43,870 bases of DNA from Verrucomicrobiota bacterium (GTDB taxonomy: Bacteria > Verrucomicrobiota > Lentisphaeria > Victivallales > UBA1829): assembly GCA_022703965.1 (NCBI GenBank), contig JAKJHH010000002.1, positions 1 to 43,870 on the forward strand. The letters run 5' to 3'. The notes under the pieces were generated by a model. The model worked only from the letters and a program-made list of their open reading frames with translations, was not told the DNA's origin and searched no databases. This document shows positions 5,082-39,655 of the stretch, piece after piece. How positions within the stretch are numbered: the stretch's first letter is position 1; each line of letters opens with the position of its first letter. The translations under genes were made by a program, and so were the position numbers.

Positions 5082-5738
5082 TTAAAACGACCACATACTG
5101 TCAAAAGGGCCGGGATACTTTTTAATGTAATATGTACCTAATCCTGTTTCGGTTATAGCGCTTCCAGGACTCAAACTGTTAACGTGTCCGTCGCAGAACA
5201 GAAAATTGCTGCTGCTGAGATGTCCGAGTGTAGCGGTATCGTTGGCATAAGTCCAGAAATAATTTCCACTGCCCCAATCGGCATCAAGCCAGGATCTGCG
5301 CCCAAATGACTCGACAAGCAGAAATACAGAACTTGGATTCTTGATCTGAGCCAGTTTTTTACCGCTGGGCCGTTTAGTAGGCACTGCATATGTTATAGTG
5401 TTGAAAGCATAACTGGCCTTTTTATATGCTCCCGGATCGCGAACGACACGGTCATTTGCACATGTAAATATTTCTGCTTTGAGTACATAATTCCATATCC
5501 CGTATTGCCATGCACCCTTTGATACATCCGTATGATCGAAATACGGCATATAATCGCTCCAGTCTCCGGCATACATCATCAAGCCCTGCCCGAGCTGACG
5601 CATGTTATTGCTGCAACTCATCTGCTTCCCGCGTTCCCTGACTTTGCCCAAGCTAGGCAGAAGCATTGCGGCCAGAATCGCGATAATCGCAATCACAACC
5701 AGTAATTCAATGAGGGTGAAAGCTTTTCCGGTTTTCAT
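5082..5738 (-). CDS. Prepilin-type N-terminal methylation-motif protein with C-terminal H-X9-DG motif (DUF1559/TIGR04294-like pseudopilin-like protein)
   Basis: The N-terminus is [32 protein letters not shown] and the C-terminus carries [14 protein letters not shown] (H-X9-DG). A GAGAGGA RBS is present. The start is 12 nt after the LacI stop, and the stop is 44 nt before the hydrolase start. Confidence 0.85.
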
Positions 5739-12622: not shown

Positions 12623-13405
12623 TCAGGGTTTTATGTCTCTGAAGAGATAATTGTTGTTTGCCGAAAGTTCTTTGAAGCCCAGCGGCTTGACTCCGCCGTC
12701 CACCATCAGCGTATTTGCCTTGCCACCGTTTGTCGCAATATAGCTGTTTATAGTAGCCGCCTCGCTTTCAGTAAAAGAACCGCGATGTCTGAGAAAGGGA
12801 TAAAAGGCGCTTCCAAAACCGCCTCCGGCTATGATGATTGATTGTGTTCCGCTTGGAGTAGGAGTCGAATCCGTGGCAAAAATTGTGGAGGACGGAACTC
12901 TTATCTGACTGAGTTTTCTGAGTTTTGCCGCGCTGGATGATGTATCATAAGATAGATACACAAAGTTCATCCCATACGAGACTTCTTCCTGAATCGCTAC
13001 TGTTGTATCGCCCAGTTTCTGCGGGCTTGTCGCAGGACAGCAGAATATGCTTGAATGGAAACCGCCTGGCATATTCCACCACCTTTCATCCCATCCTGCC
13101 GGAGGATTCGGCTGAGTTTTGCCTACCGCATATTCATAAATCAGGCTTGGCCACCAGCTTTTTCTTGTCGCACCTGTCCCACCATTAAAGTTTTTGACAC
13201 CGTCCGGAGGGATGTAGTCATTGTAGTCTCCGCAATACATCAGCATCCCGCAACCGATCTGCTTCATTCTGGATGCGCAGGAAGTCTGTTTTGCCATATC
13301 CCTTGCCTTGCCAAGAGAAGGCAGCAACATACTGGCAAGAATTGCTATGATGGCAATGACTACAAGAAGTTCTATTAAGGTAAAAGCTTTCCGAAAATGT
13401 CCCAT
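12623..13405 (-). CDS. Prepilin-type N-terminal motif protein, H-X9-DG family with a degenerate C-terminal motif
   Basis: The N-terminus is [33 protein letters not shown]. At the C-terminus [14 protein letters not shown] replaces H-X9-DGH. A GGAG RBS lies 6 nt upstream, and the stop is 13 nt before the GH2 start. Confidence 0.8.
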
Positions 13406-13714: not shown

Positions 13715-14407
13715 ATGAGCGAATGTAAAAGGATACCATTCACCTTGATAGAATTGCTGGTGGTAATCGCCATTATAGCGATTCTGGCATCAATGCTTCT
13801 TCCGGCTCTTGGAAGCGCAAGGGACAAAGCCAGAAGCATGGCTTGCATTTCCAATCTCAAGCAACTCAGTCTGGCGGAAATGCAATACACCAACGATAAC
13901 AATGACTTCATGGCTCCGACTATCTTTGCAATAACATCCAGCATACGCCTCTGCTGGTGCTGGGACGAGACCTCTACTCTCAACAGCTTTCCCCTGCTTC
14001 CTTACTTCGCAAACCGGGAGCAGTTCATGAGAACAGCAAGATGTCCGGGTGACATCGAAATTCAGAAATATCCTGTCGGCACCGCCGGAAAAATTTCATA
14101 CACAAGAAATACAAACCTCGGACAGACGCATGTTCCCGCGCTGCCTGAAGACGGAATCCTGCGTTTTTCTCAGATAAAGCCGACAGCGCCGTCACAAGTG
14201 ATAATGACAGCGGATCTGAATCCGGACAACCCGCTTGGACGCGTGATAAACTTCATCACCGCCGATAACAATAGAATCGCCTATCGCCACAATAAGTTCA
14301 CGAATTCACTTTTCACGGACGGACATGTCGCACCTGTACGCTATGGTTCCATCGTCAGGAATAATGTCGAATTCAGAAACAATCTCACAAACCCAATCTT
14401 TCCTTAA
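13715..14407 (+). CDS. Prepilin-type N-terminal motif protein with C-terminal H-X9-DG motif
   Basis: I chose the ATG at 13715 because an AGGAGA RBS (13704-13709) precedes it. The longer ORF from 13613 adds a non-protein-like leader that overlaps the predicted promoter. The N-terminus is [33 protein letters not shown] and the C-terminus carries [14 protein letters not shown]. Confidence 0.8.
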
Positions 14408-24240: not shown

Positions 24241-24936
24241 TTACTTGGATTTCTTGTAATACCAGTCGATATTTCCGTTCAAACCTGCAAGCAGAACCAT
24301 GCGGGTCATCCAGCTGACATGACCGTCCGCCCATACGCAGTTCATTCCGTCGCTGTGACGGTTTCCGACTACAGGATTTTGAGCCCATCCCGCGGCTGAA
24401 GGCGGCAGAACTCTGGCATACAGAAATTCGCCTGTTCCTCCGACTCCGTCGCTGCTGTCTCCGCATACAATTGTCTGCCCTGGCATTTTTATCTCATTGA
24501 TTCTGGCTCTTGGACGGTCAGGCGAGCCGTCATAGTATCCGATGTTATAGTAATTCCATCCGTAACCGCCGCGATGATTCCAGCTGCTAAGTTCAAGCTT
24601 CCAGGACGGACACTTGAAGTAACGCAAGTTTATTGAATCGGACAAACCGCTTGCGTTAATCCCCATATAAGGAAAGAACTCGTACTTCCATTCAGTAGGG
24701 CTCATACCTACAGTGTCGCTGATCGGCAACCATCCTGCATAGTCATTTATATAAGCGCTCGTTGCTATTGCAAACTGTCTGCATGTGCCTGAGCAGGATG
24801 TCCTTTTTGCCATTTCTCTGGCTTTGCCGAGAGCAGGCAGAAGCATTGATGCCAGTATCGCAATAATCGCGATAACGACCAGCAACTCTATCAAGGTAAA
24901 GCGCAACGGATCTTTTGCGGAATTCATAATTTTCAT
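24241..24936 (-). CDS. Prepilin-type N-terminal motif protein with C-terminal H-X9-DG motif
   Basis: The N-terminus is [38 protein letters not shown] and the C-terminus carries [22 protein letters not shown] is present, 19 nt after the AraC stop. Confidence 0.85.
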
Positions 24937-33439: not shown

Positions 33440-34216
33440 TCATGCTTTTCCGCGGCTTTTTTCGCGGTAGGAGCCGGGAGTGCAGGAATTGCGCTCACGG
33501 AAGGCGAAGCTGAAAGCTCTTTCATTCGCGAATCCGCATTCGGCGGAGATTTCTTTGAGGCTCATCGGAGTGTTTGCAAGCAGAGAACGCGCTCTGTCCA
33601 GACGGCATTCCAGAGAAAAATCCTTGAGGCTTTTTCCGTAGTATTGCCTGAAAAGATGACGCAGATAGTCATTGCTGACTCCAACACGACGCGCGATTTC
33701 CCTGATTTTCGGAGGCTTGGCCGTCTCAACCGACGCAATACGCCGGGCTTCCGACACCACAAGAAAAGCCGGATCATGTTCCTCTCCGCTCTTCGAGTTC
33801 AACTCCCATATTATCGACTTCATCAAAGCGACTGCCCGCAAATTCTTTGCCTCTATTGAAGTCTCTTCCCTCCAATGCGTTATGTCTTCAAGCTCCATTA
33901 ATATCGATTGTTTTCCGAGAGACTTCAGAAGAAACGGACGATTCAGAATTTTCAAAATTTCAGGATCACTTACAGCAACCTGCACGCAATTGTCGATTCC
34001 GGCGCTTTTCATCTTCTGGTCGTGAGGCATATCCGGAGGATATATGACAAGGTCGCCGGGGGCAAAACTGATTTCAGTGCCGTCGGCACATTTTGTAAGA
34101 CCGCTACCTGAAGGATGATATACAAGTTCGTAACCGTTATGCGCATGCATATGACATGAATGAGTACTCGAAAGCACTCCTGCAAATGCAATGACAAATT
34201 CTGCTCCGTAGTCCAT
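33440..34216 (-). CDS. AraC-family transcriptional regulator (cupin N-domain + HTH)
   Basis: Cupin-like segment HMHAHNGYELVYHPSGSG...GDLVIYPPDMPHD. The C-terminal HTH is IREIARRVGVSNDYLRHLFRQYYGKSLKDF...ISAECGFANERAFSFAFR. The start is either 34216 (with an AAGGG RBS-like sequence) or 34279 (no RBS). Confidence 0.7.
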   Translation of the reverse strand: MDYGAEFVIAFAGVLSSTHSCHMHAHNGYELVYHPSGSGLTKCADGTEISFAPGDLVIYPPDMPHDQKMKSAGIDNCVQVAVSDPEILKILNRPFLLKSLGKQSILMELEDITHWREETSIEAKNLRAVALMKSIIWELNSKSGEEHDPAFLVVSEARRIASVETAKPPKIREIARRVGVSNDYLRHLFRQYYGKSLKDFSLECRLDRARSLLANTPMSLKEISAECGFANERAFSFAFRERNSCTPGSYREKSRGKA

Positions 34217-34341
34217 AGAATAAGCCCTTTTATGACCGATTGCGGGAATAGATAACCGTTTTCGGGAATAGTTAAGCATACAATTTCATTATAAAATATA
34301 ATTGTCAAACCGAAAAAGATAATAAACCAAAGAGGATTTAT

Positions 34342-35464: not shown

Positions 35465-36229
35465 ATGAAATTCAGTGCTACCGATTGGAGTTTTTTGAAA
35501 AAAAGCGGACTTGAGCCGCAGGAATATTACGAAAAGCTTAAGAAAGCCGGATTCGATGCGGTGGAAATGACGGAACCAGCTCTTCGCGAAACTGCCCGCA
35601 AGGCAGGACTCGAAGTCCTGAATATATCCTGTCCGGGTATGGAGAAGGGGCTCAACCGCAAGGAAAATCATGCTGATTTGCTTCCTAAGATCAAGGATTG
35701 CATTTATGAAGCGGCGGACAACAAGGTCAAGTATGTGATCGTCTTCAGCGGTGCCCGTGCGGGACAGGATGATTCTGAAGGGCTTAAGAACTGTCGCACA
35801 GCTGTTGAAACTCTTATTCCCGATGCCGAAAAAACAGGAGTCGAAATACACTTTGAAGGCTTCAACACATACGATCATCCCGATTATCAGGGAAGCAGTT
35901 CTCGTTATATGTTCAGCCTAGTCAAAGCGGTGAACTCTCCATACTTCAAGGCTCTTTTCGACATATACCATATGGAAATGGCGGGTGAATATACCGCGTC
36001 AATCATCCGCGACAACCTTGATCTGATAGGACATCTCCACGTTGCCGGAGCGGGAAAGCGTCTTGCTCCGAAGATGGACGGACTTATCAAATATCCTGAA
36101 ATCGTGAAACAAGCGACATCAGCCTCGTATTCCCGCTACTGGGGACTTGAGTTTTTCCCGTCAGACGATGTTCTGGGCGATTTCGTGAGAGTCAAGAACG
36201 AAATGCTGAAGGCTTCCAAAGTGTATTGA
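35465..36229 (+). CDS. Hydroxypyruvate-isomerase-like / sugar phosphate isomerase-epimerase (xylose-isomerase-like TIM barrel)
   Basis: 254 aa. The motifs GFDAVEM, VIVFSG, IHFEGFN, FDIYHME and GHLHVAG are typical of Hyi/AP_endonuc_2-type TIM barrels. An AGAGGA RBS is present. Confidence 0.7.
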   Translation: MKFSATDWSFLKKSGLEPQEYYEKLKKAGFDAVEMTEPALRETARKAGLEVLNISCPGMEKGLNRKENHADLLPKIKDCIYEAADNKVKYVIVFSGARAGQDDSEGLKNCRTAVETLIPDAEKTGVEIHFEGFNTYDHPDYQGSSSRYMFSLVKAVNSPYFKALFDIYHMEMAGEYTASIIRDNLDLIGHLHVAGAGKRLAPKMDGLIKYPEIVKQATSASYSRYWGLEFFPSDDVLGDFVRVKNEMLKASKVY

Positions 36230-36308
36230 TTCGCAATACATTAATATTGAGGCGGAATCTTATATTTGCCTTGCGCGATGCTATATTAGCGCCGAAAGCA
36301 CGAAACAA

Positions 36309-36472
36309 GGGAGCCTCTAAAAATTGACTTGAGAAAAAAAATCATGTATTGCGGCTTAAAGCCATGATTTTGCAAGTCATCGGCTAGCAGAGCTAACCGA
36401 TGCCGCGCAAGGTCGTGGCGCTTGCCGCAAGACAGAGTTTTGTTCCAAGTTTTTCAATTTTTAGAGGTTCCC
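36309..36472 (+). other. 164-nt inverted-repeat-bounded structured element (candidate cis-regulatory leader RNA or MITE/REP-like repeat)
   Basis: GGGAGCCTCTAAAAATTGA (36309-36327) pairs with TCAATTTTTAGAGGTTCCC (36454-36472), giving 19 bp with one G.U. The helix encloses three local hairpins (36340-36369, 36378-36402, 36405-36428). The element ends 14 nt before the AAGGAG RBS of the GH38 gene. Confidence 0.5.
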
Positions 36473-36499
36473 GCAATGCATAACGCAAGGAGATATAAG

Positions 36500-39400
36500 A
36501 TGCTTAAACATCCGGCGCTTACAGAAGCAAAGGTCAAGAATCTCATCGCCCGCATATACCCTGCGGACGTCTATCCTGAAAACATTCCCGTTGATGTGGA
36601 AATCCACGAAGTCAAAGGCGAACCAATAACCTATCAGGAAGCTGTAAAGAGAAAGTACAAGCCTCTCGCCAAAGGTCAGGAATGGGGAAGTCTCTGGGAC
36701 ACCGTCTGGTTCAAGGTCAAAGGAAAAGTTCCGGCTAAATGGAAAGGCTCCGAAGTAGTCGCCAGAATCAGCTTCAACTACATCTTCCGCGAAGGATTCT
36801 CCTGCGAAGGACTGATCTGGATGGATGGCAAACCTGTTACCGCCATCAACATGAACCGCGACGACATTCCGATCACACGCAAGGCTTCAGGCAGTGAATC
36901 ATTCGAGTTCTACGTCGAAGTCGGCGCAAATCCGATGGGCGAATGTACATTCAACGGCAGACTCCTTGCCCCGGACTACAACTCTGCTCCTCAGTACAAG
37001 ATCACTGAAGCAGTCCTTTCAATCTACAATCGCGAGGCTAACGACATCTACAGCATGCTCAACTTCGCGCTTGAGACAATGAAGGCTCTGCCTGAAGGTC
37101 AGAGAAAAGGACGCCTTCTCTACGCCCTCAACGACGCAGTAAACGTTCTTGAGCCCGGCGACATGAAGAGTCTCAGAAAAGCCATTGATCTTGTGATGCC
37201 CGAACTCAAGAGAAAGAACGGCGACACTGTTCACAAGATTTCCGCCACAGGTCATGCGCACATCGACACAGCATGGCTCTGGCCGCTCCGCGAAACCGTC
37301 AGAAAATGCTCAAGAACCTTCTCTACCGCCCTCAAATACATGGATGAGTATCCTGAATACGTATTCTCATGTTCTCAGGCTGTTCAGTACGCATGGATGA
37401 AGAAGAATTATCCTGACATCTTCAAGGGCATCAAGGAGAAGACAAAGAGAGGTCAGTGGGAACCCGTCGGCTCAATGTGGGTCGAACCGGACTGCAATAT
37501 ATCCTCGGGCGAATCGCTTGTCCGCCAGATTTTCTACGGCAAAAAGTTCTTCAGAGAAGAGCTCGGAGTCGATACAAAGGATCTCTGGCTGCCCGATGTT
37601 TTCGGATACAGCGCGGCTCTTCCGCAGATTCTCAAGAAGTCTGGAATCGATGTATTCACAACCATCAAGATAAGCTGGAATCAGTTCAACAAATTCCCCT
37701 ATCACACCTTCTTCTGGAAGGGTATCGACGGAACTGAAATATTCTCGCACTTCCCGCCATGCAGCAACTATAACGGCTTTACCGAACCATGGGAACTGCT
37801 CAAGGCTGCCAACGAGTTCAAGGAAAACGACAGATGCAACCGCTCTCTCTACATGTACGGCTGGGGCGACGGCGGCGGAGGACCGACACGCAAGCAGATC
37901 GAGTGGGGACTTCTTTCCAAGGATGTCGAAGGACTTCCGCAGGTCACTCTTGAGCCTTCATCCGAATTCTTCAAGAAAGCTCAGAAGGATGCCAAGGATC
38001 TTCCTGAATGGGTTGGCGAACTCTATCTTGAACTGCATCGCGGAACATACACAACTCAGGCAAGAACAAAGAGGGCAAACCGCAAGAACGAGCTCAACCT
38101 CAGAAATGCTGAATTCCTCGACGCTCTCTCTTTCATCAAGGGAACAAAGAACTCAACAGAGCTCATCCCTTCACCTGAATTCGCTATTTACGAAGCACCC
38201 GACGAAAGCCGCGGCAAGTCTCCGAGAGCCAAGCACGCCGAAGCTCTCGACAGAGCCTGGAAAATGGTTCTCACCAACCAGTTCCACGACATCATTCCCG
38301 GCAGCTCTATCAACTGGGTTTACAAGGATAACCTCATTGACCACGAAAAGGTCGAAGCTCTCGCCAAGGGCGTTTCCGCAAGCGCAATTTCAGGCATAGC
38401 CGACGAAGTAAGCACAAAGGGAATCAAAAACCCGATGATGCTCGTCAATACTCTCTCCTTCAAGCGCGGCGAAGTTATCGACATCAACGACCGCGACAGC
38501 ATCTATACTGAAGTTCCTTCAATGGGATACTCGGTAGTCGATGCCAAGAAGCTGCTCAACAAGCTTCCTGAAGGACTTGAGCCTGTCATGGTCAGCGTGA
38601 AGGGCGGCAAAACCGTCATCACAAACGGACTGCTTAAGATCACTGTAGACGCAAACGGCCTCATCAGCTCGATAATCGACCTCGAAGCCGGCAACCGTGA
38701 AGTGCTTCCGAAGGGCGCTAAAGGCAACCTCTTCCAGCTCCACAAGGACAGACCTGTCAACTGGGATGCCTGGGACGTCGATGTATTCTACAAGGAAACC
38801 GTCACAGACATAACCGAGCTCAAGAGTTTCAAAGTTCTCTACACAAGTCAGCTCAAGACAGTTGTACGCATCGAGCGTGAATTCAGCGGCTCCAAGCTTG
38901 TTCAGGACATGATTGTCCGCGCAGGCACAAAGAGAATCGACTTCGTGACGGATGTAGACTGGAACGAACAGCACAAGATGCTGAAAGTCGCCTTCCCCGT
39001 CGAAGCGCTTGCACCTAAGGCAGTCTGTGAAATTCAGTTCGGACATGTTGAGCGTCCAACGCACTACAACACAAGCTGGGATATGGCAAAGTTTGAAGTC
39101 TGCGCCCACAAGTACGTTGACATCTCCGAGCACGGCTACGGCGCGGCCCTCATCAACGACTGCAAGTACGGACACGACATACACGGCAATACAATGCGCC
39201 TGAGCCTGCTCAGAGCTCCGACAGCTCCCGATCCGGAAGCTGACCGCGGCAAGCACAAGTTCACCTACTCGTTCCTGCCTCACAAGGGCGACTTCAGAGC
39301 AGCAGGTGTAATCAGTGAATCCTACAGCCTCAACATTCCTGTGATCTCCATGCCTCTTGCTGAAAATCAGAGCGGCAAACTGCCGTCTTCGATGAGTTTC

Positions 39401-39655
39401 TTCAAGATCAAGGACAATCCGGCGATGGTAATTGAAGCGGTCAAGGTTTCAGACGACGGCAAGTCCGTGATCGTCAGACTTTATGAGTCCTTCGGTTCAC
39501 GCGGCAGCTTTACGATGGAATCCGATATTCCGTTCAAGTCCGCGAGCCTGACAAACCTGCTCGAAGAAAAGCAGGCCGATCTCAAGCTCAAGGACAAAGC
39601 TGTAAGTCTTGAAGTCAAGCCCTTCGAGATCATCACAATCTCCTTCCAGCTCTGA
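36500..39655 (+). CDS. GH38-family alpha-mannosidase (cytoplasmic type)
   Basis: GH38 motifs are SATGHAHIDTAWLWP, WVEPDCNISSGESLVRQ, LPDVFGYS and LELHRGTYTTQ. It is about 1,051 aa with no signal peptide. I chose the ATG at 36500 because AAGGAG lies 7 nt upstream. The TTG at 36422 would place the start inside the structured element. Confidence 0.85.
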   Translation: MLKHPALTEAKVKNLIARIYPADVYPENIPVDVEIHEVKGEPITYQEAVKRKYKPLAKGQEWGSLWDTVWFKVKGKVPAKWKGSEVVARISFNYIFREGFSCEGLIWMDGKPVTAINMNRDDIPITRKASGSESFEFYVEVGANPMGECTFNGRLLAPDYNSAPQYKITEAVLSIYNREANDIYSMLNFALETMKALPEGQRKGRLLYALNDAVNVLEPGDMKSLRKAIDLVMPELKRKNGDTVHKISATGHAHIDTAWLWPLRETVRKCSRTFSTALKYMDEYPEYVFSCSQAVQYAWMKKNYPDIFKGIKEKTKRGQWEPVGSMWVEPDCNISSGESLVRQIFYGKKFFREELGVDTKDLWLPDVFGYSAALPQILKKSGIDVFTTIKISWNQFNKFPYHTFFWKGIDGTEIFSHFPPCSNYNGFTEPWELLKAANEFKENDRCNRSLYMYGWGDGGGGPTRKQIEWGLLSKDVEGLPQVTLEPSSEFFKKAQKDAKDLPEWVGELYLELHRGTYTTQARTKRANRKNELNLRNAEFLDALSFIKGTKNSTELIPSPEFAIYEAPDESRGKSPRAKHAEALDRAWKMVLTNQFHDIIPGSSINWVYKDNLIDHEKVEALAKGVSASAISGIADEVSTKGIKNPMMLVNTLSFKRGEVIDINDRDSIYTEVPSMGYSVVDAKKLLNKLPEGLEPVMVSVKGGKTVITNGLLKITVDANGLISSIIDLEAGNREVLPKGAKGNLFQLHKDRPVNWDAWDVDVFYKETVTDITELKSFKVLYTSQLKTVVRIEREFSGSKLVQDMIVRAGTKRIDFVTDVDWNEQHKMLKVAFPVEALAPKAVCEIQFGHVERPTHYNTSWDMAKFEVCAHKYVDISEHGYGAALINDCKYGHDIHGNTMRLSLLRAPTAPDPEADRGKHKFTYSFLPHKGDFRAAGVISESYSLNIPVISMPLAENQSGKLPSSMSFFKIKDNPAMVIEAVKVSDDGKSVIVRLYESFGSRGSFTMESDIPFKSASLTNLLEEKQADLKLKDKAVSLEVKPFEIITISFQL

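Follow-up and report, generated by a model that had tools for sequence, protein, structure and literature searches.

The Correia elements of Neisseria duplicate the dinucleotide TA and carry an IHF site as well as promoter elements; REPINs are not known to have target-site duplications and reside in genomes that carry a cognate RAYT. The features of MITEs have been reviewed (PMC10969869): transcribed Correia repeats form a long double-stranded stem with RNase III cleavage at the paired termini, and ERIC sequences alter mRNA decay. In REPINs, compensatory changes between the arms similar to those described below have been documented, and an alternative “clover” fold has been discussed (PMC3116915).

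The window analysed here (the whole stretch of 43,870 nt) harbors, in the 270-nt spacer (36230-36499) between a TIM-barrel gene and a GH38 alpha-mannosidase gene, an imperfect palindrome. With a probability of about 0.9, it represents a single copy of a MITE of about 165 bp, a palindromic transposable element that is non-autonomous and does not code for protein (Table 1). Its small size and the lack of a transposase gene agree with such an element; the only open reading frame touching it is an in-frame upstream extension of GH38 from a TTG at position 36422. The first-pass annotation had described the same stretch as a cloverleaf-like element closed by a 19-bp helix and had considered both a ligand- or protein-responsive leader RNA of the mannosidase and a MITE/REP-like repeat. 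The closing helix (19 pairs including one G.U), the length of the spacer and the distance of the element to the AAGGAG motif are as described there; the GH38 start codon follows 27 nt past the element end. According to the Pfam assignments, the genes are arranged in the order divergent AraC regulator (33440-34279, minus strand), zinc-ADH-like gene, TIM barrel and GH38; after subtraction of the element and one copy of the duplication, the spacer would measure about 102 nt. A second repeat in the window (87-98 nt, 68-82% identical; 5634-5720, 13298-13384, 13739-13836 and 24814-24900) corresponds to the prepilin-type N-terminal segment of several pseudopilin-like genes and is a coding-sequence similarity, not a mobile repeat.

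Table 1. Coordinates of the palindromic element, its parts and the adjoining genes (numbering of the window).
Feature	Position	Strand	Remarks	Basis
TIM-barrel gene, xylose-isomerase-like	35465-36229	+	stops 79 nt 5' of element	Pfam
Left target-site duplication ACAA	36305-36308	+	imperfect, 3/4 versus right copy	flank table
Whole copy of the probable MITE	36309-36472	+	164-nt imperfect palindrome, one long rod hairpin	alignment with flanks, nhmmer, folding
Left terminal inverted repeat GGGAGCCTCTAAAAATTGA	36309-36327	+		sequence; alignment of copies
Core	36360-36420	+	61 nt, kept across families with different termini	covariance model match (78.9 bits); core alignment
Apical hairpin CATCGGCTAGC-AGA-GCTAACCGATG	36378-36402	+	conserved C.A mismatch	
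Right terminal inverted repeat TCAATTTTTAGAGGTTCCC	36454-36472	+		sequence; alignment of copies
Right target-site duplication GCAA	36473-36476	+		flank table
AAGGAG ribosome-binding site of GH38	36487-36492	+	outside element, 14 nt past element end	
GH38 alpha-mannosidase gene	36500-39655	+	1051 aa; Glyco_hydro_38N/38C/Alpha-mann_mid	translation; Pfam

The search for further copies proposed in the first-pass annotation was carried out by BLAST and nhmmer in the window's own assembly (G000; 4.2 Mb, 380 contigs, 78% complete) and yielded 12-13 copies: eight full copies (C222, i.e. the window copy, C55, C372, C317, C244, C96, C88 and C78), three that are cut by contig ends (C292, C275 and C268) and two divergent ones (C374 and C276). 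Their identity to the window copy is 78-94%; they are located on separate contigs (at least 12 dispersed copies) and adjoin unrelated genes in all orientations. When they were aligned with their flanks, the similarity dropped sharply at GGGAGCC... on the left and at ...GGTTCCC on the right side; the boundaries of the window copy were therefore set at 36309 and 36472. The terminal inverted repeats (GGGAGCCTCTWAAAATTG / CAATTTTWAGAGGTTCCC) comprise 18-27 bp, and 19 bp in the window copy, with GGGAGCCTCTWAAAATTG(G) as family consensus terminus at both ends; a parent element would share the terminus GGG(A/T)NNCTCTWAAAAYTGG. Target-site duplications of 4 bp, which the first-pass annotation had recommended to look for, are perfect in four of the G000 copies (ATAA/ATAA in C372 and C78, TTTA/TTTA in C96, TTCA/TTCA in C88) and match in three of four positions in others (TTGA/GTGA in C244, ACAA/GCAA in the window copy, GAAA/TAAA in C276), whereas the flanks of C55 and C317 revealed no recognisable 4-bp duplication. 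The repeat reading is supported in its MITE form by the multi-copy state, the terminal inverted repeats and the target-site duplications. Besides the complete copies, solo matches to the terminal repeat were present at C97:7840-7872 and C336:96-113 (0 and 2 mismatches). The sequence that follows them is unlike the MITE interior, and one of the two is located at the edge of a contig; ends of a related element, ends of an unassembled parent IS and chance are all conceivable origins.

A sister family with about 240 copies is present in the Victivallales MAG G241 (JAISIP01, “Victivallales bacterium Hm464_bin66”, 2.4 Mb), where the terminal repeat GGGTATCTCTAAAAACTGG gave 241 forward and 245 reverse matches versus 1 + 1 for the reversed control. 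The G241 copies share the architecture of the window element (about 166 nt, inverted termini, rod fold). Among the 51 unique full copies examined, the 4-bp duplication was perfect in 34 and matched in three of four positions in 10 more, the commonest targets being TAAA (10), TTAA (4) and TTTA (4); these duplication statistics are strong evidence that insertion proceeds through cuts with a 4-bp stagger, the targets being AT-rich and TNNA-like. With regard to the neighboring genes, the copies were positioned between tandem genes (14 co-oriented, 8 in opposite direction), divergent genes (12) and convergent genes (9). One full copy (L099:1335-1500, contig C35 of G241) abuts a DDE_Tnp_1 frame that begins at model position 48 and is a nested insertion that splits the transposase gene of another IS. 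A mini-derivative of 38 nt, GGGTATCTCTAAAAACTGGGTTGTTTTTAGAATTAGCC, which contains little beyond the two terminal repeats, is found at L095:974-1011 (G241:C153); a comparable deletion form of about 65 nt exists for the type B element treated below (G414:C39:2251-2315).

Folding of positions 36300-36480 resulted in −88.4 kcal/mol versus −45.1 ± 4.2 kcal/mol for dinucleotide shuffles (z = −10.4), and the minimum-energy fold of the element itself (−87.0 kcal/mol) consists of one rod-like hairpin with about 65 pairs, in which the left arm is paired to the right arm as far as the apical hairpin. This result is at variance with the proposed cloverleaf. The stems of the three local hairpins do exist at 36340-36369, 36378-36402 and 36405-36428, but the first and the third are not kept: the best fold with hairpin 1 forced reaches −68.7 kcal/mol and is thus 18 kcal/mol worse than the rod, and when 30 copies (four genomes) are aligned, the pairing amounts to 61% in hairpin 1 and 49% in hairpin 3 versus 94.9% in the rod, with zero compensatory changes in hairpin 3. 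In the same alignment, which comprised 51 consensus rod pairs and was compared with 500 shuffles, the paired rod cells exceeded the proportion in the shuffles (84.9 ± 0.5%), 31 of the 51 pairs contained a compensatory change (shuffles: 18.5 ± 1.6), and 165 cells were compensated (shuffles: 47 ± 5). None of the 500 shuffles reached any of these rod measures, and sliding of the partners lowered the pairing to about 40%. Within G000 alone the covariation was modest (5 compensated pairs versus 1.8 expected), including the C-G pair 36381/36399 in the apical hairpin of the window copy that replaces a T-A pair in sister copies.

The compensatory changes do not necessarily reflect stepwise selection on a transcript. 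In single G241 copies (L088:1495-1661, L095:2365-2530, L073:2100-2266), 4-6 bases of one arm beside the apical hairpin have been rewritten so that they exactly complement the opposite arm, e.g. GCGCGTAT x ATACGCGC and GTTCGCAT x ATGCGAAC. This pattern looks like a templated correction of one arm by the other in the DNA and less like the outcome of stepwise selection. The covariation alone is therefore no proof of a functional RNA. The + strand of young G000 copies folds 10-19 kcal/mol better, and among recent single mutations A.C is at least as frequent as G.U; since the master copy passed on this strand preference as a single inherited trait, and in view of the A.C/G.U counts, no selection at the RNA level was deduced from it. 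The first-pass annotation had further pointed to a pairing of CCTTGCGCG (36269-36277) with CGCGCAAGG (36404-36412) as basis of an alternative structure competing with the third hairpin. The 9-nt complementarity is present but at chance level: a second one of 10 nt, CGCAATACAT / ATGTATTGCG, links positions 36232-36241 of the same left flank with 36344-36353, the 10-mer and the 9-mer pairings are not colinear for one helix, and flank-to-element complementarities of 8-10 nt at unrelated positions are seen beside several other copies. Both are probably fortuitous.

The distribution of the element is patchy. A first search in 40 relatives gave no match; a search with the family consensus in 400 genomes of the phylum retrieved related elements in three, which belong to the same order and to another family. 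An exact core-pattern scan of 185,579 species was positive for only 7 Lentisphaeria/Victivallales MAGs, several of them labelled as animal or human gut, and of the 151 genomes of the order screened with the covariance model of the 61-nt core, 8 were positive; the core was absent from all 51 other searched genomes of the window's own family. The core pattern had no match in the JGI metagenomes and IMG/VR, and exact-pattern scans with the right subterminal 25-mer (genome contigs) and a 28-mer of the right arm (metagenome contigs) found nothing. Lineage-specific bursts and a patchy occurrence of this kind would be expected of a mobile element. The termini fall into different types: besides those of G241 (type A), type B termini, ATACGCTTTCTTGAATGAG...GAAAGCGTAT, were found in G414 (at least 8 full copies), G415 and G332, and type C termini, TATACTTTGAACGG..., in G032 and G418; G241 and G332, with type A and type B, respectively, are members of one genus. 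The type B elements show no 4-bp duplication, and a TA duplication is possible. Common to the three terminus types is the apical hairpin TGGCT(NNN)-AGA-(NN)TAACCA with a fixed C.A mismatch; in types A and B, this hairpin is bordered by TTTTGCAAG...CGCGCAAGG, where the U.G pairs are invariant. The conservation of this core exceeds the needs of a DDE transposase.

An autonomous IS with matching ends was not found in G000 among its 8 DDE_Tnp_1 loci and one DDE_5 locus; likewise, the ends of the transposase loci in G241 and G067 were unrelated to the element, and no IS with the element termini was found among the DDE_Tnp_1, DDE_5 and Y1_Tnp loci of G000, G241, G067 and G207 taken together. All these MAGs are fragmented, and multi-copy IS are often left unassembled in assemblies of this kind. 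Insertion sequences of the ISfinder families IS5, IS701 and ISH3, as possible parents, possess inverted repeats starting with GG and 4-bp duplications at AT-rich targets; they resemble the element in its termini and duplications, but no member with matching ends was found. An IS5-family element on contig C87 was dismissed as parent on account of its different ends, GGTTTTATCCGTAAATAA, and an IS701-like gene on C269 because no matching repeat was present. The former is a complete element of about 918 bp (L044:1019-1936; G000 C87:4386-5303), IS427/IS1031-like and unrelated to the MITE, with the transposase encoded in two overlapping frames (DUF4096-like N-terminus plus DDE) and the inverted repeats GGTTTTATCCGTAAATAA / GGTTCTATCCGTAAATAA. 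A perfect pair of terminal repeats 1557 bp apart on C153 of G241 proved not to delimit an IS: it encloses a glycyl-tRNA synthetase gene, which is flanked by the 38-nt mini-element on one side and a full copy on the other.

As the whole-length palindrome, the co-varying arms and the core outlasting its termini go beyond what a DDE enzyme needs, the mobilisation of the element may be unconventional. A REPIN-like or otherwise hairpin-dependent element, moved as single-stranded DNA by an HUH/Y1 enzyme (RAYT, IS200-like) or by another structure-specific enzyme that reads the apical hairpin and not the termini, would account for the palindrome and for the frequent compensatory arm changes, of a kind also documented for REPINs (PMC3116915), as well as for the apical hairpin (TGGCT..AGA..TAACCA) with its fixed mismatch under three terminus types; moreover, Y1_Tnp matches are partial in G000 and strong in G207. 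However, regular 4-bp duplications of variable sequence are unexpected from RAYT or IS200/IS605 chemistry, the terminal inverted repeats are clear, and Y1_Tnp (PF01797) had no match in G241, the genome with about 240 copies, although at 89% completeness this does not prove its absence; mobilisation by a RAYT was rejected and the hairpin-dependent alternative as a whole is regarded as improbable. A related view, somewhat speculative and rather doubtful, considers the 61-nt core as the invariant part of a superfamily, a structure-specific module read on one strand, to which the termini are attached as exchangeable adaptors. It is derived from the persistence of the core over three unrelated kinds of termini with apparently different target duplications and from the freely co-varying stem; its reader could be an undescribed hairpin-binding mobilisation protein or a host RNA- or DNA-binding factor.

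The other two alternatives to a plain MITE insertion concern the effect on the downstream gene. A dedicated cis-regulatory leader RNA evolved for GH38 (riboswitch, protein-responsive attenuator or stabiliser) would be in line with an element that is located in the GH38 5' region at a distance of 14 nt to the ribosome-binding site, and with its very stable fold and co-varying helices. Against it stand the at least 12 unrelated loci in G000 and about 240 in G241, in both orientations and also between convergent genes, and the target-site duplications; the first-pass annotation had not recognised a known riboswitch class, and the scan of the element against Rfam 15 (E ≤ 10) gave only a 16-bit chance match (toga_FSE). 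Furthermore, the element is not kept 5' of GH38 elsewhere. The TIM-barrel protein is 62% identical to its best homologue among 5.8 billion proteins searched, and in the nearest homologous AraC-ADH-TIM modules a GH172 gene or a histidine kinase comes next, with short spacers and no element; a GH38 gene downstream was not found in the nearest loci examined. Since other genes are located 3' of these modules, there is no conserved GH38 leader, and since the TIM-barrel relatives do not exceed 62% and the nearest loci have different downstream genes, no orthologous empty site is available for comparison. Simple scans of the spacer detected neither promoter-like nor terminator-like sites: the stem is followed by GCAATGCATAAC and does not form the GC-rich stem with U-tract of an intrinsic terminator. 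An outward hybrid promoter at the right end (TTTACA, 16 nt from the edge) was discarded as well, with poor flanking −10 candidates, implied leaders that are too short and no sigma-70-like match. The probability of a dedicated leader is accordingly close to nil, and the element as a regulator or riboswitch of the mannosidase is rejected; it lies in the GH38 leader by happenstance.

A MITE that was co-opted after insertion is a less remote alternative, albeit an unlikely one: copies just upstream of ribosome-binding sites would be retained since the transcribed hairpin either defines a 5' end that is processed and protected or acts as a translational insulator and, in the present case, aids GH38 expression. 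Of the 13 G000 copies, 7 have one end at a distance of 21-31 nt in front of a start codon (C222: 27, C372: 22, C317: 21, C78: 31, C374: 23, C55: 23, C244: 22 or 31 nt), compared with 4.6% of intergenic positions by chance; for 1-35 nt upstream of a start the chance value is 16%, both being based on crude ORF-based gene calls. The binomial tails are 6e-7 for the 21-31-nt window, which was set after seeing the data, and 0.002 for 1-35 nt, and G241 exhibits a looser trend in the same direction. In addition, an orthologous copy is found in three other Lentisphaeria species (G207, L067:1442-1606; G416, L119; G078, L176), in which the right terminal repeat TTTTAGGAGGTCGCC is followed by AAAATG and supplies an AGGAGG 8 nt before the downstream ATG; judging from its sequence, it looks like an exapted insertion. 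Precedents are provided by Correia and ERIC (PMC10969869). On the other hand, the copies show no preferred direction with respect to transcription (same versus opposite: 14 versus 8 in G241, 4 versus 2 in G000), a large number of them are found between convergent genes or well away from starts, and the distance window was chosen post hoc on crude gene calls. A preference for AT-rich targets could mimic the pattern; it could thus result from target preference, from selection, or from both.

According to the favored MITE interpretation, the element would have inserted into the original spacer of about 102 nt between the TIM-barrel and GH38 genes and duplicated an AT-rich 4-bp target (ACAA/GCAA), moved in trans by a putative enzyme that would recognise the 18-27-bp terminal inverted repeats and introduce 4-bp staggered cuts. 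If ADH, TIM barrel and GH38 are co-transcribed, the transcript would include a hairpin of ~80 bp, the end of which precedes the ribosome-binding site of GH38 by 14 nt. As in the case of Correia and ERIC, this hairpin would be a substrate of double-strand-specific RNases; in view of these precedents its processing is likely, may affect the expression of GH38 and could uncouple the stability of the GH38 mRNA from that of the upstream genes.

In practical terms, the assignment removes one candidate riboswitch from the annotation and explains several contig breaks in the MAG. As no paper treating MITEs together with Lentisphaerae as its topic was found in the literature, a MITE family is perhaps described here for the first time from this group. 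Features that are worth a closer look are the expansion to ~240 copies in a 2.4-Mb genome, the co-evolution of the arms, the hairpin that outlasts its termini and the enrichment 21-31 nt before starts. Were the hairpin processed in the mRNA, many operons for glycan degradation in gut Lentisphaeria would be affected in their expression.

Among the described repeats, REPINs have long hairpins with compensatory arm changes in common with the element (PMC3116915), but differ from it in view of the regular duplications and of the most copy-rich genome (G241) without a Y1 transposase match. Correia elements (CREE/NEMIS, Neisseria) are likewise MITEs; they measure 100-160 bp, possess terminal inverted repeats of about 20-26 bp and are often located near gene starts, and they share the long double-stranded stem of the transcribed repeats, the RNase processing of which would apply here by analogy (PMC10969869); in contrast to Correia, the element has a 4-bp duplication, and no sigma-70-like promoter was detected. 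The ERIC or IRU sequences (Enterobacteriaceae, Vibrionaceae; imperfect palindromes of 127 bp) differ in that the present element occurs in another phylum (Lentisphaeria), has clear 4-bp duplications at TNNA-like targets and retains its core under three kinds of termini. Descent from the Correia or ERIC families is unlikely given the 4-bp duplication and the Lentisphaeria host, and the comparison with both, resting on described properties, means that the element works like them and not that it is a member of either. In this sense it shares with ERIC the whole-length palindrome of 125-165 bp, the intergenic location, usually (here presumably) co-transcribed with the neighboring genes, the conserved central core, copy numbers that vary from few to hundreds between related genomes, and, with none found in the fragmented MAGs searched, the lack of a known dedicated transposase (PMC10969869).
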